22,446 nucleotides of DNA. Origin: an uncultured bacterium (GTDB lineage Bacteria > Bacillota_I > Bacilli_A > RF39 > UBA660). This document shows, piece by piece, positions 2,790 to 10,326 of this stretch (position 1 is the first letter of the stretch; each line of letters starts with the position of its first letter). The position numbers were made by a program, and so were the translations under genes. Location of the stretch: positions 1 through 22,446 of the forward strand of contig CASDWO010000074.1 of the NCBI GenBank assembly GCA_949284575.1. Reading direction: 5' to 3'. Under the pieces are notes generated by a model. The model had not been told where the DNA came from. It made no database searches and worked only from the letters and a program-made list of their open reading frames with translations.

Positions 2790-4571
2790 ATGGTTAGTAA
2801 AATTAATAATTTAGTTAAAGATAAGAAAAAAGTAATTATTGCTTTTGTTATCTTAATTATTTTGATAGCAGCTCTTTATTTTTCATATGCTTGGTTAAGA
2901 ACTGTGTTATATGGAGAAAAAGATGTACAATTAATTGTAGGAGATATCGATTTAGTTTTAGATGAATCTAATACTGAAGGAATTCAACTTGTTAATGTTA
3001 TTCCTACTTATGATGAAGAAGGTAGAATGAATGAACCTTATAAATTTTCATTAGAAAATAAGAGTGATATTCCATTATATTTTACTTTATCTTTAGTTGA
3101 TGATGAGGAAGCTTTAGAATCTTGTCAAACTACAGATGGAGGAGCTTGTGAGTTATTAGATGGTAGGGATATTAGATATGATTTACAACTAGATGGAGAG
3201 ACATTTACAGGAACTTTATCAGATTCTTATATGGTAAGTTATGGAATTATTGATGCTCATGAAAAATTAGATGGAGAACTAAAGATATGGCTTAATATTA
3301 ATGCTACTAGCGAAGCGATGGGAAAAGTATTTTTAGGAAAATTAAAAGTATTTGCTTCTCAACAAGTAGATGAAGATTTTGTTCAAGGTAATGATGCTGC
3401 TAATCCTCCAGTAATGGATGATAATATGATTGCTATTAAACATGATGGGTATAACTGGGTTAAGACAGATATAGATAATGGTTGGTATAATTATGATATG
3501 CAAATATGGCCTAATGCTGTAACTGTTAAGAGTGATAAGTTAGCAGAATACCAAAGTGCAGGAGTAGGTACTGTAATAAATATGGATGATGTAGAAACTA
3601 TGTGGGTATGGATACCAAGATATAGTTATACAATAGCTAGTGAGAATGGAAGTACATATTATGGAAAAAAAGGGACTTATTTAACGACGACGCCAACAGC
3701 TGCTTTACCGGGAGAAATAGATGTTAAGTTTATTAAAACAACAGAAAAGGATGAAGGAACAGCAAGATATTTAGCTACAGAAGAGCCTAAAAATTACCGA
3801 ACACCTGATGCGTTTACATTTAATGGTGAAGAGTTAGATGGAATATGGGTAGGAAAATTTGAGACAAGTAGTAGTAATCCTGAATTAGTAAATGGAGGAG
3901 GAAATACTACAAGTTTAGATCCGATGATTAAGCCAAATGTAACAAGTTGGAGAAGTATAAATGTAAGCAATATATATAATGTGGGATTGAAGGTAAGTGC
4001 TGAAGGAAATAGATATGGCTTTAGTACAAATATGAATTCTCATGCTATGAAGAATACAGAATGGGCTGCAGTTGCCTATTTATCACAAAGTAAATATGGA
4101 AAATTAGGAAATCAAAACTTTAGTGGAGCAAATAAGGAAGTATATCAAAATAAAAGTGATTTATATATAACAGGATGTAGTTATGGAAGTCCAAGTAATT
4201 CTAATGAAGATTATGGATGTCAATATACATACGATAACAACGTAAGAGATGAGAATGGAATGATAGGAAGAGGAGTAGGAGCCTCAACGACTGGAACAAT
4301 CTATGGTATTTATGATATGAGTGGAGGAGCATGGGAATATGTCTTGGCCAACTATAATGATATTATAGCAAATAGTGGCTTTACTGAAATGCCTCCAGTA
4401 CAGTATTATGATAAATATACGACAGATAATATTTTAACAGCATGTAATGGAAATGAGTGTTTGGGTCATAATTTATCAGAAACACGAGGATGGTATAACG
4501 ATGCACAGACATTTGTCAACGCTGAATATCCATGGTTGGTGCGCGGCGGTGGCTGTCCATTGGTCGTGTGA
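2790..4571 (+). CDS. DGR target protein: N-terminal signal anchor, large extracytoplasmic region, C-terminal FGE-sulfatase/C-type-lectin-like domain. It appears truncated inside its VR.
   Basis: 593 aa. TM segment VIIAFVILIILIAALYF. C-terminal signatures typical of DGR CLec/FGE targets: NTEWAAVAYL, GIYDMSGGAWEYV, WLVRGG. The ORF stops at TGA-TAA (4569-4574) inside the VR, before the conserved SFRLV strand, which lies in another frame. Confidence 0.85.
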   Translation: MVSKINNLVKDKKKVIIAFVILIILIAALYFSYAWLRTVLYGEKDVQLIVGDIDLVLDESNTEGIQLVNVIPTYDEEGRMNEPYKFSLENKSDIPLYFTLSLVDDEEALESCQTTDGGACELLDGRDIRYDLQLDGETFTGTLSDSYMVSYGIIDAHEKLDGELKIWLNINATSEAMGKVFLGKLKVFASQQVDEDFVQGNDAANPPVMDDNMIAIKHDGYNWVKTDIDNGWYNYDMQIWPNAVTVKSDKLAEYQSAGVGTVINMDDVETMWVWIPRYSYTIASENGSTYYGKKGTYLTTTPTAALPGEIDVKFIKTTEKDEGTARYLATEEPKNYRTPDAFTFNGEELDGIWVGKFETSSSNPELVNGGGNTTSLDPMIKPNVTSWRSINVSNIYNVGLKVSAEGNRYGFSTNMNSHAMKNTEWAAVAYLSQSKYGKLGNQNFSGANKEVYQNKSDLYITGCSYGSPSNSNEDYGCQYTYDNNVRDENGMIGRGVGASTTGTIYGIYDMSGGAWEYVLANYNDIIANSGFTEMPPVQYYDKYTTDNILTACNGNECLGHNLSETRGWYNDAQTFVNAEYPWLVRGGGCPLVV

Positions 4572-4645
4572 TAATTTGATGTTTTTTTTTTACTCTATTT
4601 TTTGGGGTGGTGCTTGCTCGTTCCGCCTCGTGATGAGCGTGACTA
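4532..4645 (+). repeat. cassette C1: expressed-site variable region (VR) with 3' IMH-like GC block
   Basis: GCGCGGCGGT at 4541-4550, 68-nt core, CGTTCCGCCTCGTGAT at 4619-4634. The core has 0 Asn codons, is T-rich, and holds a T10 tract at 4582-4591. It is homologous to 11 downstream cassettes. Confidence 0.85.
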
Positions 4646-4658
4646 GCCCGTAGGGCTA
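4644..4658 (+). promoter_or_regulatory. GC-rich hairpin immediately 3' of the VR/IMH (candidate DGR target-recognition hairpin)
   Basis: TAGCCC (4644-4649), loop GTA, GGGCTA (4653-4658). It is present only after C1 and after none of the intergenic cassettes. Its position matches the hairpin/cruciform that follows the IMH in the Bordetella phage paradigm. Confidence 0.55.
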
Positions 4659-4732
4659 AACTCTTGGGCACAAACAAAATAAGAAGGTTAAAAATAGAGA
4701 AAGAAAGAATATTGTCAAATTATTCGATAATA

Positions 4733-4772
4733 GCCTCGGCGCCCTCTTTTTTAGCGACGAGGCGTTTTTTTT
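4733..4772 (+). terminator. intrinsic terminator downstream of the target gene
   Basis: GCCTCG (4733-4738) pairs with CGAGGC (4758-4763), extended by CGC/GCG pairs, followed by T8 (4765-4772). Confidence 0.6.
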
Positions 4773-4783
4773 GAAACTAAAAT

Positions 4784-4815
4784 GATCAAGGTCCTGATTT
4801 TTCAGGGCCTTGATC
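4784..4815 (+). terminator. second strong stem-loop (terminator-like)
   Basis: GATCAAGGTCCTGA (4784-4797), loop TTTT, TCAGGGCCTTGATC (4802-4815): 14 bp with one G-T pair. It is followed by TAATTTTTAATTT, which is not a clean U-tract. Confidence 0.4.
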
Positions 4816-5183
4816 TAATTTTTAATTTATAATTTTCTTTTTGCTTGTTCCATATATTGGTGAGATTTTCTATAGTAAGGTAAATCTTTAAATTAAACTT
4901 TTTCTTTATATGGTTTTATTGTAATATTTGTATGTTCTTGGATTTTTATTTGATATATTTTTTTAAAACTCTTATTTAGAACTGTTTTGTTTCTAATATT
5001 TAATTTTTCTATACTTATTAATTATATTAGCTGATAGTAAAAAATGGAAAAAATTGTATTTGATTTTTATTGTTTAAATTTTATAAAATTTAATTGTCAT
5101 CTATATAGATGACAGGGATTAGGTCAAAATGCTTATGTATTTTCGTTGGATTAGTACTCTTTTTGTTAAGAGACTTTTCTTAT

Positions 5184-5296
5184 ATGGTTGGTGCGCGGCG
5201 GTGGCTGTCCATTGGTCGTGTGATAATTTGATGTTTTTTTTTACTCTATTTTTTGGGGTGGTACTTGCTCGTTCCGCCTCGTGATGAGCGTGACTA
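5184..5296 (+). repeat. cassette C2: near-identical intergenic twin of the expressed VR
   Basis: 113 nt against the 114 nt of C1. The only differences are T9 (5234-5242) against T10, and A5263 against G4612. In frame it reads RGGGCPLVV**FDVFFFYSIFWGGTCSFRLVMSVTMM*. An in-frame TAA lies 7 codons upstream. The 3' flank switches to the cassette-type spacer. Confidence 0.85.
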
Positions 5297-5514
5297 TGAT
5301 GTGATTATAGTTTAAGTTATTACTTATGTAATAAAAAATTTAATATCCTAGAGACTTAATTCCTACTTTTTTAAGTAAACTTATAATATGATGATGGGTA
5401 AGTAGTTAATTTGGGCGAAAATCAAAAATCATAGGGCAAGTACCTCTTGCCTTTTTTACTTTAGTGTTTTATTTTATATATGCGGGAGAAGTTTAATTTG
5501 TTTTTTTAGTTGTT

Positions 5515-5619
5515 GCGCGGCGGTGGTTATAATAATGACACTAATACCGGTGTTTTCTATTTCGATCATGCGGTTGAGTATGGTTCTACAGGTGTTAATG
5601 TGTCGTTCCGCCTCGTGAT
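5515..5619 (+). repeat. cassette C3 (26-codon core)
   Basis: Translates RGG-GYNNDTNTGVFYFDHAVEYGSTGVNV-SFRLVIGDY... with 4 Asn. TAG lies two codons upstream of the Arg codon. 3' class is ATAGGAGAC. Confidence 0.85.
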
Positions 5620-5836
5620 AGGAGACTACAATATAATTTTATTTAAGTTATTGCTATTTAGTAATAAAAAATATTTATTGTAGAACTTTTTCCTTTTTAC
5701 TTTAGTAAATAAAATAATGAAGTACTATTTTTCTAGGTAGTAAATACTGAACACTAGAAAAATATATTGTTGTTTGTAATACTTGTTTATGATAAATTTT
5801 ATGTAGGGAGAAGTTAATTTAGTTTTTCTAGTTGGT

Positions 5837-5941
5837 GCGCGGCGGTAGCTATAACGATAATACTGGTGCAGGTATGTTCAACTTTAATCGTACTAATACT
5901 TTAGGAGTTGGTAGTAATAATCATTCGTTCCGCCTCGTGAT
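5837..5941 (+). repeat. cassette C4 (26-codon core)
   Basis: RGG-SYNDNTGAGMFNFNRTNTLGVGSNNH-SFRLVI* with 7 Asn. TAG lies two codons upstream. 3' class is ATTTGAGAC. Confidence 0.85.
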
Positions 5942-6160
5942 TTGAGACTACAATATAGTTTTATTTAAGTTATTGCTATTTAGTAATAAAAAATATTTAT
6001 TGTAGAACTTTTTCCTTTTTACTTTGGTAAATAAATTAAAGAAGTATTATTTTTCTAGTTAGTAAATAGTGAACTCTAGAAAAATATATTGTTGTTGATA
6101 ATATTTGTTTATGATAAATTTGATGTAGGGGAGAAGTTTAATTTGTGTTTTTTAGTTGTT

Positions 6161-6265
6161 GCGCGGCGGTGGTTATAACAATGCTACTAATGCAGGTATG
6201 TTTTATTTCAATAACAGTAATATTACTGGTGGAGCTAATATCGATAGATCGTTCCGCCTCGTGAT
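6161..6265 (+). repeat. cassette C5 (26-codon core)
   Basis: RGG-GYNNATNAGMFYFNNSNITGGANIDR-SFRLVIGDY... with 7 Asn. TAG lies two codons upstream. Confidence 0.85.
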
Positions 6266-6481
6266 AGGAGACTACAATATAGTTTTATTTAAGTTATTAC
6301 TTATGTAATAAAAAATATTTATTGTAGAAACTTTTTCCTTTTTACTTTGGTAAATAAAATAATGAAGTACTATTTTTCTAGTTAGTAAATAATGAACACT
6401 GGAAAAATATATTGTTGTTTGTAATGTTTGTTTATGATAAATTTGATGTAGGGAGAAGTTAATTTTGTTTTTCTAGTTGGG

Positions 6482-6589
6482 GCGCGGCGGTAACTATAAT
6501 TCTGGTGGTGCCATTGCAGGTGTGTTTTATTTCAATAATAGTAATATTACTGGTGAAGCTAATATCAATAGATCGTTCCGCCTCGTGAT
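6482..6589 (+). repeat. cassette C6 (27-codon core)
   Basis: RGG-NYNSGGAIAGVFYFNNSNITGEANINR-SFRLVI* with 7 Asn. TAG lies two codons upstream. The 3' half is nearly identical to C5. Confidence 0.85.
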
Positions 6590-6814
6590 TTGAGACTACG
6601 ATATAAGATTATTTAAGTTATTACTTGTGTAATAAAAAATATTTATCATAGAAACTTTTTCCTTTTTACGAGTAGTATTAGTAAATAAAATAATGAAGTA
6701 CTATTTTTCTAGTTAGTAAATACTGAATACTAGAAAAATAAAATATTGTTAATAGATTTTCTTTATGATAAATTTTATGTAGGGGAGAAGTTAATTTTGT
6801 TTTTTTAGGTTGTT

Positions 6815-6913
6815 GCGCGGCGGTAGTTATATTAATTCTAATGCAGGTATGTTTTATTTCAATATTAACGTAGCTGGCAATGCAAATAGTAATGGCTCGT
6901 TCCGCCTCGTGAT
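6815..6913 (+). repeat. cassette C7 (24-codon core)
   Basis: RGG-SYINSNAGMFYFNINVAGNANSNG-SFRLVIGDY... with 7 Asn. An in-frame TAA lies 8 codons upstream. Confidence 0.85.
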
Positions 6914-7133
6914 AGGAGACTACAATATAGTTTTATTTAAGTTATTACTATATTGGTAATAAAAAATATTTATTGTAGAGACTTTTTCCTTTTTACTTTG
7001 GTAAATAAAATAATGAAGTATTATTTTTCTGGTTAGTAATTAGTGAACACTAGAAAAATATGATGTTGTTAATATTAATTATTTATGATAATTTTAATAT
7101 TGGGAAAAACTTTAAATTATTTTTTGCGTTATT

Positions 7134-7232
7134 ACGCGGCGGTAACTATAACAATAATACTAATGCAGGTGTGTTTAACTTTAATCATGTTGATGGTAAT
7201 ACTAATATTAATTGGTCGTTCCGCCTCGTGAT
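7134..7232 (+). repeat. cassette C8 (24-codon core, most Asn-rich)
   Basis: RGG-NYNNNTNAGVFNFNHVDGNTNINW-SFRLVI* with 10 Asn. The 5' block is ACGCGGCGGT. The leader variant is GGGAAAAACTT. An in-frame ATG at 7060 gives at most a 58-aa ORF (7060-7236). Confidence 0.85.
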
Positions 7233-7450
7233 TTGAGACTATGATATGAGATTGTTTAAGTTATTACTATATTAGTAATAAAAAATATTTATCATAGAAG
7301 TTTTTTCCTTTTTACTTTGGTAAATAAAATAATGAAGTACTATTTTTCTAGTCAGTAATTAGTGAACACTAGAAAAATATAGTGTTGTTAATAGTATCTA
7401 TTTATGATAATTTTAATATAGGGAGAAGTTATATTTATTATTTTGTTATT

Positions 7451-7549
7451 GCGCGGCGGTGGTTTTAATAATACGACTAATGCAGGTGTTTTCAACTTTG
7501 GTAACACTCTTGGTAATGGTGACAGCAATAATTCGTTCCGCCTCGTGAT
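7451..7549 (+). repeat. cassette C9 (24-codon core), unit with truncated spacer
   Basis: RGG-GFNNTTNAGVFNFGNTLGNGDSNN-SFRLVI* with 8 Asn. The next cassette follows after only 219 bp. The spacer lacks the CTTTTTCC segment and the TTTTTCTAG/CTAGAAAAA hairpin. Confidence 0.85.
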
Positions 7550-7669
7550 TTGAGACTATGATATAAGATTGTTTAAGAAGTTATTACCTATGTAAAAAAT
7601 TTATTGTTAATAATACCTATTTATGTTAATTTTTATATAGGGGAAAGTTAATTTTGTTTTTTAGTTGTT

Positions 7670-7768
7670 GCGCGGCGGTAACTATAATAATTCTAATGCA
7701 GGTATGTTTTATTTCAATACCTGGAATATTGGTAATACTAGTATTAATGGCTCGTTCCGCCTCGTGAT
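7670..7768 (+). repeat. cassette C10 (24-codon core)
   Basis: RGG-NYNNSNAGMFYFNTWNIGNTSING-SFRLVI* with 8 Asn. TAG lies two codons upstream. The 5' half is nearly identical to C7. Confidence 0.85.
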
Positions 7769-7992
7769 TTGAGACTACGATATAGTTTTATTTAAATTAT
7801 TACTTATGTAATAAAAAATATTTATCATAGAAACTTTTTCCTTTTTACGAGCAGTATTAGTGAATAAAATAATGAAGTACTATTTTTCTAGTTAGTAATT
7901 AGTGAACACTAGAAAAATATAGTGTTGTTAATAGTATCTATTTATGATAATTTTAATATAGGGAAAAGGTAAATGTATTTTAGTTGGTTGGT

Positions 7993-8091
7993 GCGCGGCG
8001 GTGTATTTAGTAATAATACTGATGTTGGTATTTTCTACTTTAGTTATACTATTGGTGGTGGTAGCATCTTTAGTTCGTTCCGCCTCATGAT
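7993..8091 (+). repeat. cassette C11 (24-codon core, adenine/Asn-poor, VR-like flanks)
   Basis: RGG-VFSNNTDVGIFYFSYTIGGGSIFS-SFRLMMKDY... with only 2 Asn. The 5' flank GGTTGGTGCGCGG matches the VR. The 3' block is the variant CGTTCCGCCTCATGATGAAAGAC, where the VR has ...GTGATGAGCGTGAC. An in-frame ATG at 7973 gives at most a 53-aa ORF. Confidence 0.85.
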
Positions 8092-8282
8092 GAAAGACTA
8101 CGATATAGTTTTATTTAAGTTATTACTTATGTAATAAAAAATATTTATCATAGAAACTTTTTCCATTTTACGAACGGTATTAGTAAATAAATTAAAGAAG
8201 TATTATTTTTCTAGTTAGTAGATAGTGAATACTAGAAAAATAAAATATTGTTAATAATATCTATTTATGATAATTTTGATAT

Positions 8283-8566
8283 AGGGAGAAGTTATATTTA
8301 TTATTTTGTTTTGCGCGGCGGTAGCTATAATGCGACTTCTAATGCAGGTGTGTTTAATTTCAATACTTGGAACAATGGTAATGCTAATTCTAATGGATCG
8401 TTCCGCCTCGTGATTTGAGACTACAATATAGTTTTATTTAAGTTATTGCTATTTAGTAATAAAAAATATTTATTGTAGAGACTTTTTCCTTTTTACGAGC
8501 AGTATTAGTAAATAAAATAAAGAAGTACTATTTTTCTAGTTAGTAAATAGTGAATACTAGAAAAAT
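8283..8566 (+). ncRNA. candidate DGR template RNA unit (leader, TR-like core, structured spacer) adjacent to avd
   Basis: Leader AGGGAGAAGTT (8283-8293) can pair with GACTTTTTCCT (8480-8490) and so enclose the core. The nested CTACAATA/TATTGTAG and TTATTGCTA/TAGTAATAA hairpins are present, as is the terminal hairpin ATTTTTCTAG (8530-8539) / CTAGAAAAAT (8557-8566). The same architecture repeats in most units. Transcription is not demonstrated. Confidence 0.45.
8313..8414 (+). repeat. cassette C12 (25-codon core), positional candidate for a canonical TR next to avd
   Basis: RGG-SYNATSNAGVFNFNTWNNGNANSNG-SFRLVI* with 9 Asn. It is the last unit, and its spacer runs directly into the avd RBS. Confidence 0.85.
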
Positions 8567-8587
8567 AGTGGATGAGGAGTGATAACT

Positions 8588-8944
8588 ATGGATGATTTAG
8601 AAGGATTAGTTATTTATAAACAATATGTTGAACTTATTTATTATACTCTTTCTATTTTACTTAAATATCCTAAATCTGAAAGATTTTCTTTAGCTCAAGA
8701 TATTAAAAATACTACTTATGCAGGACTTAAAGATATTATTTATGCTCAAAAAGAATATGATAAGAAAAAGAGACTTTCTTATTTAAATGAACTTGATGCT
8801 AATTTAAAAATAGTTAAAGTTTTGATTAGAGTTTCTCATAAGAAAAAATATATTACTTCAAAAAATTATACAGCTTGGAGTAAGAAAATTGCTAATATTT
8901 CTAATCTTAATGGAGGTTGGATTAAATCATGCCTCATACGATAA
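8588..8944 (+). CDS. avd: DGR accessory variability determinant (Avd, four-helix-bundle family)
   Basis: About 118 aa, basic and helical, with the pattern typical of Avd / 23S-rRNA-IVS-like proteins (YKQYVELIYYT...KYPKSERFSLAQDI...LDANLKIVKVLIRVSHKKKYI). GAGGAG at 8574-8579 precedes ATG 8588; the ORF track starts at GTG 8579. It overlaps the RT start by 16 nt. Confidence 0.85.
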   Translation: MDDLEGLVIYKQYVELIYYTLSILLKYPKSERFSLAQDIKNTTYAGLKDIIYAQKEYDKKKRLSYLNELDANLKIVKVLIRVSHKKKYITSKNYTAWSKKIANISNLNGGWIKSCLIR

Positions 8945-9993
8945 GAAATGCTTATTTGAAACATTTAACTATAGAGTCATTAATTGAAGCTCATGAGAGG
9001 GCTAGTAAGACAAAGAGATATTCCAAAGAAGTATTAAAATTTGAAATTGATCTTGAGAGTAATATAGTTAATTTATATAAGAAATTAAAAAATGGGACAT
9101 ATAAAATGGGAAAATATCGAGAATTTAAGATATTTGAGCCTAAAGAGAGGATAATTAGATCTTTACCTTATGTTGATAGAATTGTTCATCAGTGGTATGT
9201 TCATGAGTTTATAAAACCTTATGTTATACCTAGGTTTATTGTTGATTCTTATGCTTGTATAGACGGAAGAGGAACTCATAAAGCGGTTGATAGGATTCAA
9301 GCTTATATGCAAAATATGAAAAATAAATATGGTACTTACTATATAGTAAAATGTGATATTAAGGGATTCTTTTATAATATAGATAAAGATGTATTATTAA
9401 ATATTATGTTAAAATTTATTAAAGATGAGAAATTAATTTGGCTTACTAAAGAGTTTATTTATGGAGATGAAGATGAGATTGGATTGCCAATTGGTAATTA
9501 TACTTCACAATTTTTTGCTAATATTTATATGAACGAGCTTGATCATTATGCTAAAGAAGAATTGAAACTTAAGTATTATGTTAGATATATGGATGATTTT
9601 GTGTTTTTGGTTAAAACAAAAGAAGATGCTAGGAAATATATGGAACTTATTGCAGTTTTTCTAAAAGAAAAGTTACATATTCAATTGAATCATAAGAGTG
9701 GATATTATCCTAATAAAATGGGCCTTGATTTTTGTGGATTTCGTATTTATGAGAGTTATCGGTTACTTAGAAAGAGAAGTATTAAGAAAATAAAAAGAAA
9801 GATTAGAAAGTGGAATGAATTGTATTCTCATAATTTGTTAGATTTAGAGAAAACAATTTTAGAATGGAATTCTTGGCTTGGACATAGTTCTCATGCTAAG
9901 TGTTATAAATTGCAATGGGATATGTATAATAGGATTCTTTTTAAAGAGCATTTGAAGAAACCTTATGTGGAGACTTATGGACGAATATTATAG
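8929..9993 (+). CDS. DGR reverse transcriptase
   Basis: 354 aa. RT motifs include IVKCDIKGFFYNID, the DGR-typical LPIGNYTSQFFANIYMNELD (the SQ motif) and YVRYMDDFVF (YMDD). The size is compact with no maturase or endonuclease domains, and it is translationally coupled to avd. Confidence 0.93.
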   Translation: MPHTIRNAYLKHLTIESLIEAHERASKTKRYSKEVLKFEIDLESNIVNLYKKLKNGTYKMGKYREFKIFEPKERIIRSLPYVDRIVHQWYVHEFIKPYVIPRFIVDSYACIDGRGTHKAVDRIQAYMQNMKNKYGTYYIVKCDIKGFFYNIDKDVLLNIMLKFIKDEKLIWLTKEFIYGDEDEIGLPIGNYTSQFFANIYMNELDHYAKEELKLKYYVRYMDDFVFLVKTKEDARKYMELIAVFLKEKLHIQLNHKSGYYPNKMGLDFCGFRIYESYRLLRKRSIKKIKRKIRKWNELYSHNLLDLEKTILEWNSWLGHSSHAKCYKLQWDMYNRILFKEHLKKPYVETYGRIL

Positions 9994-10035
9994 TTTTAAT
10001 AAGTTCTTTCTTATTAATGAAAGAGGGTAAGTATT

Positions 10036-10326
10036 ATGGATATATATAAAAAGAGTAGGGGTATTTTTATTGTAAATATAGCAATTATATTATTTGTATT
10101 ATTGGTTTTAAGTCCTAATCTTCTGTTTGTTTTTGAGTTTATTATTGATATATTTGTATTATTTCTAACTTTACGTCTTATAAATGATAATATTTTTGTA
10201 TATAATGAGAAATTAAAAAAAGTAACAGTAATTTTTACAATATTTATTATAGGCTATTGTTTGTTATTGTACTTTAAAAATTTTCATCCTTTCTTTTTGG
10301 TGATTACTTTTCTTAGATATATGTAA
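10036..10326 (+). CDS. small hydrophobic membrane protein, unknown function
   Basis: 96 aa with about three predicted TM stretches (IFIVNIAIILFVLLVL, FIIDIFVLFLTL, IFTIFIIGYCLLLYF). No recognisable family. It could be a spurious AT-rich ORF. Confidence 0.35.
   Translation: MDIYKKSRGIFIVNIAIILFVLLVLSPNLLFVFEFIIDIFVLFLTLRLINDNIFVYNEKLKKVTVIFTIFIIGYCLLLYFKNFHPFFLVITFLRYM

Follow-up and report, generated by a model that had tools for sequence, protein, structure and literature searches.

The window, as we call the whole stretch of 22,446 nucleotides (nt) analysed here, is chromosomal DNA of ~27% G+C from an uncultured bacterium of the RF39 lineage (assembly GCA_949284575.1, contig CASDWO010000074.1, positions 1 to 22,446). 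We propose that it holds a chromosomal diversity-generating retroelement (DGR), with target gene, variable region (VR), accessory protein Avd and reverse transcriptase (RT), whose template is a tandem array of template repeat (TR) cassettes with a repeated RNA scaffold. On the comparative evidence set out below, we put the probability of this reading at roughly 0.8. We further infer that the units are transcribed one by one, that particular helices serve particular proteins and a priming site, and that all complete units are active in this genome.

The non-coding stretch downstream of the target gene contains twelve copies of a core sequence (C1 to C12), which are bounded by GCGCGGCGGT and TCGTTCCGCCTCGTGAT and lie, like the target gene, Avd and RT, on the + strand. 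C1 belongs to the VR and C2 is an unusual unit to which we return. C3 to C12 are A-rich cassettes with a period of ~320 nt, each of which reads VRGG...SFRLV(stop) in the frame of the target gene. Nine of these ten cassettes sit inside a complete copy of the DGR template-RNA scaffold.

Helices around the template cassettes

A preliminary description of this DNA, made from its letters alone, had placed four helices around each cassette, with unit C4 as the example; the sequences and coordinates it gave are all exact, and the four helices were confirmed. In C4 an extended -10-like motif (TATGATAAATT, 5788-5798) stands upstream of the leader (AGGGAGAAGTT, 5805-5815), the putative equivalent of the upstream strand of the cPRT Stop discussed below. 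The leader is the 5' strand of the closing helix H1 and pairs over 11 base pairs (bp), two of them G.U, with AACTTTTTCCT (6006-6016) in the spacer, whose terminal CC pairs with the leader GG. The TR core (5837-5941) translates in the VR frame as VRGGSYNDNTGAGMFNFNRTNTLGVGSNNHSFRLVI*. Downstream of it, H2 (CTACAATA, 5948-5955, with TATTGTAG, 5998-6005) encloses an extension of H3 (5962-5966/5991-5995) and H3 itself (5970-5976/5983-5989). This nested hairpin at 5970-5989 had been correctly located, and its dimensions needed amending, to 7-8 bp with a loop of 4-7 nt instead of 9 bp with a 2-nt loop. The unit ends with H5 (6018-6031), a short stem-loop (TTTAC-TTTG-GTAAA) followed by an A-run, and H4 (6048-6086; strands ATTTTTCTAG from 6049 and CTAGAAAAAT from 6076), a 12-bp stem with a conserved UAGUA...GAAY loop.

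Applied to the nine complete units, RNAalifold predicted H1, H2, H3 and H4 de novo, and added the 5-bp extension of H3, H5 and a pairing between two invariant GC blocks. The 5' GC block GCGCGGCGG (5837-5845 in C4) is complementary to the 3' GC block CCGCCTCGT (5930-5938) in every unit; the predicted 8-bp helix would loop off the variable part of each TR, and both blocks are invariant and coding. The minimum-energy fold of C4 contains H1 to H4. It amounts to -61.5 kcal/mol on the + strand, compared with -37.5 kcal/mol on the - strand, and H1 is present in the + strand fold only. In terms of single-sequence folding energy, neither C4 (z = -1.56, + strand) nor the - strand (z = -1.10) is significant alone, and the case therefore rests on covariation.

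Within the window, several differences between units are compensated. In C8 the closing helix (GGGAAAAACTT, 7102, with AAGTTTTTTCC, 7298) has a G-C pair flipped to C-G, as described, and gains one extra A:U pair. H2 of C8 (CTATGATA, 7239, with TATCATAG, 7290) shows a genuine double change: A-U has become G-C in C6, C8, C10 and C11, and C-G has become U-A in C8 only. The intermediate form reported for C6, C10 and C11 does occur, except that CTACGATA/TATCATAG is not fully paired and leaves a C.A mismatch. Among the relatives introduced below, CTATGATA/TATCATAG is the majority state of the family, and CTACAATA/TATTGTAG of the window is derived. In an alignment of 11 window units, 91.2% of the cells pair, a share that falls to 47-60% when the partner strand is slid by 1-3 columns. 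Four of five covariation measures were unmatched by any of 500 shuffles; the fifth, which counts further pair types, is unremarkable at the level of the window.

The notion that each cassette carries its own flanking structure holds for the nine complete units and fails for C9 (7420-7633; leader 7420-7430, core 7451-7549, H2 5' strand 7556-7563). This truncated unit has lost ~100 nt of spacer, with a period of 219 instead of ~320 nt, and lacks the 3' strands of H1 and H2 as well as H5 and H4. Its best leader:spacer duplex reaches -5.5 kcal/mol and its covariance-model match 42.8 bits, over 86 nt only. Leader, core and promoter-like motif are retained.

Covariation among related genomes

A search with the RT retrieved 53 loci. 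In fifteen of them, all from gut metagenome-assembled genomes labelled Candidatus Onthousia or uncultured Bacilli/Tenericutes, the RT is 78-85% identical to that of the window. The close loci share one layout: a VR with a GC hairpin, one C2-type unit, an array of 2 to 25 A-rich cassettes with their own leaders and spacers, then Avd and RT. With Tandem Repeats Finder run on all 53 loci, arrays directly upstream of the RT were confined to this close group; large-period repeats away from the RT occur in a few distant loci (L023, L035, L039, L048, L053). The largest array seen, in L003 (1-9700), has at least 25 consecutive A-rich cassettes after the C2 unit, on a contig that starts inside the array and so lacks the VR.

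Depending on the alignment, 83-110 homologous units from 16 related genomes could be compared. In this sample, compensatory changes back every helix. In a MAFFT alignment of 83 complete units 87.5% of the cells pair, both sides change in 23 of 48 pairs, and all five measures beat 500 of 500 shuffles. A spacer covariance model built from the window units finds 110 copies; in the resulting alignment, which unlike the MAFFT alignment is fitted to the structure, 95.9% of the cells are paired, double changes occur in 26 of 37 pairs, further pair types number 82 against 54 expected, and the covariation score is 0.267, compared with 0.125 after shuffling and 0.03-0.07 after sliding. All such cell counts overstate the number of independent events, as the units in one genome are related, partly through recent duplication or concerted evolution.

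The signal is spread over the scaffold. Covariation is strongest in H5, where all 5 pairs show double changes (for instance UA 49/CG 39 and CG 41/UA 33), and double changes also affect 12 of 12 pairs in H4. Pair types include UA 67/CG 5 and GC 88/AU 6 in H2, and UA 72/CG 17/AU 2 and AU 86/GC 4 in H3. Unpaired elements are conserved as well: AAA follows within 10 nt 3' of H5 in 101 of 104 units, and the UAGUA...GAAY loop of H4 is found in 91 of 104. Spacers are 0.81-0.90 identical, compared with 0.61-0.66 for the cores. Among the paired cells G.U outnumbers A.C by 149 to 23, and this excess implies that the constraint acts on the + strand RNA. Taken together, the comparative data indicate that the helices are real, selected and acting at the level of RNA.

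Could the helices instead have arisen by chance in AT-rich repeats, or be ordinary terminators or attenuators? The ~27% G+C, the single-unit z of -1.56 and a T-rich stretch after H2/H3 would suit such an explanation. We nonetheless consider its probability close to negligible, since it is contradicted by the covariation and the slide controls. Moreover, the T-rich stretch covaries with the leader ~190 nt upstream, H5 is followed by adenines and not by U's, and a terminator scan flags none of the helices. H2/H3 plus T-run as a terminator is specifically ruled out by the covariation of H1. Also ruled out was a role of the leader (GGGAGAAG) as the ribosome-binding site of a mini open reading frame (ORF), the nearest start codon being ~20-60 nt off.

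The closing helix

H1 deserves separate treatment because MAFFT blurs it by a register shift of one column, the window units having 5 U's in the run and most relatives 6. It was consequently tested by an alignment-free permutation of duplexes. Cognate leader:spacer duplexes have a mean energy of -12.24 kcal/mol, compared with -10.13 +/- 0.21 kcal/mol for permuted ones, and none of 10000 permutations was as low. When a longer stretch was searched for the leader, an unbroken duplex of 9-15 bp was found in 83 of 83 units, in 67 distinct sequence variants, such as GGGAAGGTCT/GGATCTTTCC and GGAAAAGCTC/GAGCTTTTTC, with flanking A:U versus U:A pairs. The C2-type unit has a compensated H1 of its own, TAGGGATTAAATC/GATTTAATTCCTA, in 14 of 15 related loci, and so do more distant relatives with a single TR (GGGTATAGTTTT/AAGACTATATCC in L017, GGGATTAATC/GATTGATTCC in L021). 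Judging from this covariation, the spacer pairs with a segment upstream of the TR, as in the cPRT Stop.

Proposed separate templates

The preliminary description had also suggested that each cassette is an autonomous template RNA. The comparison of units lends support to this idea through a promoter-like motif, the coding integrity of the cassettes and the assignment of donors. The motif TGnTAnnnT stands 5-9 nt upstream of the leader G-run in 78 of 82 units (background 0.10 per scanned window), and its longer version TRTGnTAnnnT, a Gram-positive extended -10 form, in 60 of 82 (background 0.015). Before C5 to C12 the motif starts at 6110, 6433, 6764, 7084, 7403, 7622, 7943 and 8266. Its position fits one promoter per unit, with the transcript starting at the leader.

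It is unlikely, though by no means far-fetched, that the array is instead a single long transcript from one promoter, in which the units fold independently without being separate RNAs and TRTGnTAnnnT is part of the RNA or has some other role. The terminator scan found no terminator-like site between the A-rich units, H4 has no U-tract after it, and the last unit runs directly into avd, all of which would suit a long transcript. However, the motif has an extended -10 form and keeps its fixed distance from the leader G-run, while little else is conserved in the stretch from H4 to the motif. The Bordetella phage RNA, in addition, needs only ~20 nt upstream of the TR (Handa et al., bioRxiv 10.1101/2023.10.23.563531), which fits a start at the leader.

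Regarding coding integrity, 84 of 86 cassettes keep the reading frame open and in phase, AAT and AAC together make up 26% of their codons, and their adenines fall on codon positions 1, 2 and 3 in numbers of 1103, 945 and 168. Regarding donors, the VR of eight sister loci equals one cassette save for 7-18 mismatches at template adenines and 0-1 elsewhere, without gaps; a pair of this adenine-only kind is thus found in eight orthologous loci and is missing from the window. The donors (mismatches at A sites/non-A sites) are cassette 1 in L004 (17/0), cassette 2 in L001 (16/0), L007 (11/0) and L057 (12/0), cassette 3 in L056 (18/0), the last cassette in L006 (15/0) and L019 (7/1), and a cassette upstream of the target gene in L009 (15/0). 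L001 and L019 have a common array and different donor cassettes. In six TR-to-VR pairs, 81 of 158 template adenines are changed, with one non-A change. These assignments suggest that several cassettes serve as templates across genomes. The donor in L009 is itself a complete template unit (4046-4380), which lies ~2 kb upstream of its VR (6306), beyond the target gene. A metagenome scan for VR ends yielded 4 contigs only.

The same data bear on the idea that just one unit works, for example the RT-proximal C12, and that the rest are inert duplicates which remain folded because they are young or gene-converted. Pairwise identity among the spacers of the window is 85-94%, and these spacers have window-specific states in common, such as CTACAATA/TATTGTAG, as would be expected of such duplicates, and C9 shows that units can decay. 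Against this stand VRs in sister genomes that trace to first, second, third, last or upstream cassettes, the 84 of 86 open and AAY-rich frames despite variable parts that are only ~61-66% identical, and differences that are compensated within single arrays (C8 versus C4, and many in L003). On balance we find a single working unit quite improbable.

More improbable still is that the cassettes are silent donors for gene conversion of DNA, in the manner of pilS, vls or tprK, with the inverted repeats acting as recombination signals or cruciforms. Many partial copies that look promoterless do stand beside one expression site, and the identity between the VR and C2, nearly free of adenine mutagenesis (1 of 40 versus 81 of 158), makes it appear that some copying at the level of DNA occurs here. 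The TR-to-VR differences, on the other hand, are confined to adenines, a DGR-type RT and Avd are adjacent, and G.U is tolerated where A.C is not (149 versus 23); the G.U pairs of H1 would turn into mismatches in DNA, and likewise on the opposite strand.

The variable region and unit C2

The VR (C1; 4532-4645, core 4541-4634, 94 nt) is poor in A and does not run in frame into the usual ...SFRLV end. It is near-identical to C2: in a local alignment, VR 4532-4645 and C2 5184-5296 differ by one substitution, where C2 has A and the VR has G, and by the length of one T-run. A GC block and a hairpin (TAGCCC-GTA-GGGCTA, 4644-4658) come immediately 3' of the VR, and the stem covaries across genomes (TAGCCC/GGGCTA versus TAGTCC/GGACTA); hairpins of this kind reportedly have a role in the target site at DGR variable regions. 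The sequence after this hairpin (4659-4730, including AAAATAAGAAGGTTAAAAATAGAGAAAGAAAGAATATTGTCAAATTATTCG) is conserved nearly base for base across all related loci, and further downstream we noted by eye a GC-rich inverted repeat with a T-run (~4735-4775), and by the scan a terminator-like hairpin at 4784-4815.

Unit C2 (5114-5364) has a leader, AGGGATTAGGTC (5114-5125), that pairs with GACTTAATTCCT (5353-5364) in a duplex of -16.5 kcal/mol, an A-poor core (5193-5285), and a spacer that scores 62.9 bits with the covariance model over its full length. The VR-type sequence GAGCGTGACTA is followed by a hairpin with a 7-bp stem and a 3-nt loop (CTATGAT-GTG-ATTATAG; 5294-5310), in a position equivalent to that of the hairpin after the real VR. 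By the position of this hairpin, C2 resembles a recipient site as well as a template. Across genomes the C2 cores are homologous, A-poor and out of frame, and VR-type sequence and hairpin follow them; the C2 core of L005/L006 is TR-like, with 95 nt and 21 A. Immediately 5' of the C2 leader lies another hairpin (GTCATC-TATATA-GATGAC, 5096-5113), whose GTCATC...GATGA(C/T) stem is kept in related loci with variable loops and which may overlap the C2 promoter. A terminator-like hairpin (AGGGCAAGTACCTCTTGCCTT then TTTTACTTT, 5433-5453) closes the unit at the position that H4 has in the A-rich units; according to the scan it is the sole site of this kind inside the array.

Identity between VR and C2 recurs in L010 (a long-read circular genome), L013 and L015, and thus in 4 of 13 genomes in all. 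L057 has the cassette set of L013, yet a normal adenine-mutagenised VR, which makes the C2 state polymorphic. We rejected an assembly artefact as the main explanation of the identity, given that the shared flanks measure ~19 and 30 nt and that one case is long-read and circular. Because only 1 of 40 template adenines is changed, compared with 81 of 158 for ordinary cassettes, the copying of C2 into the VR is probably not mediated by the RT. A tentative extension of our proposal, to which we give decidedly less than even odds, is a multi-template DGR in which up to 25 modules of promoter, leader, TR and spacer compete for one VR, and in which C2 additionally represents a templated null or reset state, that is, a reversible OFF/ON switch. 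The A-depletion and frame loss of C2 would be expected where a template had become the target of its own complementary DNA (cDNA). Copied into the VR, C2 would truncate the target protein, and later homing from an A-rich cassette would restore it. If true, diversity would equal the choice of cassette multiplied by adenine mutagenesis, with an OFF/ON switch layered on top of hypermutation.

Weighing the proposal

Several observations count against our reading of the array. In this genome the VR carries a premature stop and copies the A-poor C2; it matches none of the ten A-rich cassettes, the best alignment having 20 mismatches at A sites, 15 elsewhere and 7 gaps. C9 cannot work as described, and C3 has no TRTG motif upstream. 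A generic sigma-70 scan was uninformative in such AT-rich DNA (29 sites versus 26 expected), and conservation of the motif was used in its place. The insignificant folding energy of C4, the fitting of the covariance-model alignment to the structure and the relatedness of units within a genome belong here too. As for known RNA families, RT-10, the Rfam family of the Bordetella spacer, gives no match in the window at the gathering threshold or at E <= 1, and the nearest family, RT-14, matches four units in the same register and strand with 29.2-32.5 bits, below its gathering threshold of 48.1, so that the units are not filed as RT-14 members. Finally, when avd:Sp pairing was restored with swapped sequences in the Bordetella phage, activity was not (bioRxiv 10.1101/2023.10.23.563531); pairing alone may thus be insufficient there.

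Proposed mode of action

A unit is built as follows, from 5' to 3'. An extended -10-like motif is followed by a leader of the GGGAGAAGTT type, a linker of 20-60 nt and the TR. After the TR, H2 forms between the sequence just 3' of it and the spacer, enclosing H3, and next comes the spacer strand of H1, ending in CC. The 3' part consists of H5, the adenine run, the conserved single strand AUGAAGUA and the long H4 with its UAGUA...GAAY loop. By analogy with the ribonucleoprotein of the Bordetella phage, H3 would dock Avd, and H2 would be the template:primer duplex at which RT and Avd prime cDNA synthesis in cis. H1, H5 and the adenines would, by the same analogy, make up the stop at which cDNA synthesis ends, upstream of the TR, while H4 and the conserved single strand would hold the RT. 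The adenine-mutagenised cDNA of the unit used would then replace the VR.

Genes and units of the locus

The genes are arranged in the order clpP with a PRK-like kinase, target gene, 4-kb non-coding stretch, Avd, RT, rpsL, rpsG, fusA and tuf. The RT (8929-9993) has as its nearest solved structure the bRT of the Bordetella phage (8ub7_A, E = 3.5e-46, residues 10-328), with group II intron RTs behind it (E = 2.6e-19), and it contains the [I/V]GxxxSQ motif of the DGR clade (IGLPIGNYTSQ; IGLPIGNYTSQFFANIY aligned to VGIPIGSLTSQLFANVY). The adjoining gene (8579-8944) encodes Avd, with 84.4 bits to Pfam bAvd and 83.7 bits to NCBIfam DivGenRetAVD (curated cutoff 80). By these matches the locus has both an RT of the DGR clade and an adjoining Avd. 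Directly 3' of the RT, a 96-codon ORF (10036-10326) has no match in Pfam or NCBIfam; L001 has a 125-codon ORF at the equivalent site, and this could be an uncharacterised accessory gene. A scan of the window for tRNA and tmRNA returned none.

The target gene (2790-4571; 593 codons in the ORF list) encodes an N-terminal membrane anchor (N-terminus MVSKINNLVKDKKKVIIAFVILIILIAALYF). Its reading frame stops early inside the VR (VRGGGCPLVV*), with an in-frame TGA at 4569-4571, ten codons into the VR; from its sequence, the target protein appears truncated in this genome. It has no match in Pfam or NCBIfam. We looked for a target end with a C-type-lectin fold: the cassettes read RGG...SFRLV(stop), and the only domain match is a weak one to FGE-sulfatase/CLec in the target of L017 (16.8 bits versus a cutoff of 23.3), a relative which also has a pilin-type N_methyl motif.

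The remaining complete units follow the plan of C4. C3 spans 5484-5764, with H1 at 5484-5493/5684-5693, TR core at 5515-5619, H2 at 5626-5633/5676-5683, H3 at 5648-5667, H5 at 5696-5709 and H4 at 5726-5764. For C5 (6127-6409) the corresponding positions are H1 6127-6139/6328-6340, core 6161-6265, H2 6272-6279/6320-6327, H3 6294-6311, H5 6341-6354 and H4 6371-6409; for C6 (6450-6740), H1 6450-6460/6653-6663, core 6482-6589, H2 6596-6603/6644-6651 (with the one C.A mismatch), H3 6618-6635, H5 6665-6685 and H4 6702-6740. C7 (6781-7060) has H1 at 6781-6792/6980-6991, core at 6815-6913, H2 at 6920-6927/6971-6978, H3 at 6942-6962, H5 at 6992-7005 and H4 at 7022-7060, and C8 (7102-7379) has H1 at 7102-7112/7298-7308, core at 7134-7232, H2 at 7239-7246/7290-7297, H3 at 7261-7281, H5 at 7311-7324 and H4 at 7341-7379. 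Beyond the truncated C9, C10 (7639-7919) comprises H1 7639-7649/7832-7842, core 7670-7768, H2 7775-7782/7823-7830, H3 7797-7814, H5 7844-7864 and H4 7881-7919. C11 (7962-8242) has the shortest H1, with 9 bp (7962-7970/8156-8164), core 7993-8091, H2 8098-8105/8146-8153, H3 8120-8137, H5 8167-8187 and H4 8204-8242. The last unit, C12 (8283-8567), comprises H1 8283-8293/8480-8490, core 8313-8414, H2 8421-8428/8471-8478, H3 8443-8462, H5 8492-8512 and H4 8529-8567.

Significance

The usual description of a DGR has one RT and one TR, with one or more VRs. In the present array each template comes with its own duplicate of the cis-acting RNA machinery, and the comparative data indicate the use of several templates, so that many of them can probably serve to rewrite one gene. 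A protein could then explore more sequence space than adenine mutagenesis of a single template offers, length changes included (cores of 89-110 nt). The array is also a natural mutational scan of the DGR scaffold, in which ~100 paralogous and orthologous modules reveal the required pairs and the fixed bases (UAGA, AUGAAGUA, UAGUA...GAAY), and it thereby makes a model based on cryo-electron microscopy testable in a distant lineage. It raises the question of how a template is chosen. Compact modules with their own putative promoter could, moreover, aid the engineering of multiplexed DGR mutagenesis.

The scaffold itself is already known from the Bordetella phage; the new part is that it recurs with each cassette of an array of many templates. 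Passing mention has been made of DGRs that have two or a few TRs (PMC6642488) and, in Treponema, of several TRs per person (PMC4891356). We found no account of tandem arrays of complete template modules in the searchable literature, the coverage of which is limited and no proof of absence.

Comparison with known systems

The closest known counterpart is the RNA of the Bordetella phage BPP-1 DGR (avd 3' end, TR and Spacer; Rfam RT-10), which is needed for cis-primed reverse transcription and was solved with bRT-Avd by cryo-electron microscopy (bioRxiv 10.1101/2023.10.23.563531). It begins with an upstream avd strand leading to the TR, an Avd-binding stem-loop and a primer strand that pairs with the 3' end of the TR; then come 2 nt and an 11-bp duplex with the upstream strand ("cPRT Stop"), the terminal C:G pairs of which make A-minor contacts (bioRxiv 10.1101/2023.10.23.563531). 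The adenosines of these contacts come after a short stem-loop, and are followed by a single-stranded ring round the RT thumb and a long RT-binding stem-loop; the first two elements were predicted in 207 of 278 Avd-containing DGRs (bioRxiv 10.1101/2023.10.23.563531). The units described here agree with BPP-1 on several points. An upstream strand pairs with the spacer over ~11 bp, and the C:G end of this duplex stands beside a short stem-loop and then adenosines. The TR is immediately followed by a stem-loop, and its 3' region forms a duplex with the spacer that lies 1-2 nt before the strand pairing upstream. Further 3' come a single-stranded stretch and a long stem-loop, and RT and Avd are both present. 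More precisely, H2 joins the spacer to the sequence immediately downstream of the TR stop codon; it is placed 1-2 nt before the strand of H1, and the strand terminates in an invariant UAGA. At the putative Avd-binding position just 3' of the TR stands a covarying, interrupted stem-loop of 12-13 bp (H3 with its extension). A short stem-loop followed by adenosines comes after H1, and A-minor contacts may be expected by analogy.

We therefore propose the leader as the equivalent of the upstream segment, H2 of the template:primer duplex, H3 of the Avd-binding stem-loop, the 3' strand of H1 of the spacer strand of the cPRT Stop, H5 with AAA of the short stem-loop and adenosines, AUGAAGUA of the single-stranded ring, and H4 of the RT-binding stem-loop. 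In contrast, sequence similarity between the RNAs is undetectable, and the leader lies 20-60 nt upstream of the TR here compared with ~4-8 nt in BPP-1. The gene order in BPP-1 is target, avd, TR, RT, whereas here it is target, TR array, avd, RT. The module is single in BPP-1 and present in 10 copies here, with 2-25 in relatives.

Among RNA families, RT-14 (RF02921) is one of 19 motifs found beside RT genes, and its authors left the function open (Weinberg et al. 2017, PMC5737381). Its consensus and our units have in common UUUAUUCC and, after it, a short hairpin, an A-rich stretch and a long hairpin whose loop reads UAGUA...GAA, whereas its model has neither a leader strand nor the idea of a closing helix. 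At the gathering threshold Rfam gives no match in the window and no RT motif in eight related loci.

In systems such as Neisseria pilE/pilS, Borrelia vlsE, Treponema tprK and the pseudogene conversion of bird immunoglobulins, an expressed site is rewritten from an adjacent array of partial copies. The array described here is alike in that many differing partial copies feed one expressed site. Recombination cassettes, however, are copied as DNA, without an RT or adenine-specific mutagenesis, and their donors have no RNA scaffold or promoter.

Finally, related gut Bacilli have DGRs with a single TR (L017, L018, L020 and L021; RT 56% identical). In these loci the covariance model detects the same spacer scaffold just before avd, with 34-42 bits; the leader:spacer helix is again their own, the TR is A-rich, and the target gene ends with the VR. 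These DGRs differ in having one TR, no C2-type unit and no tandem amplification. L017 has two successive small ORFs before its RT (9286-9663 and 9660-10016), the second of which is Avd-like by Pfam. That such a classical single-TR DGR has the same scaffold suggests that the array arose through amplification of the whole module.

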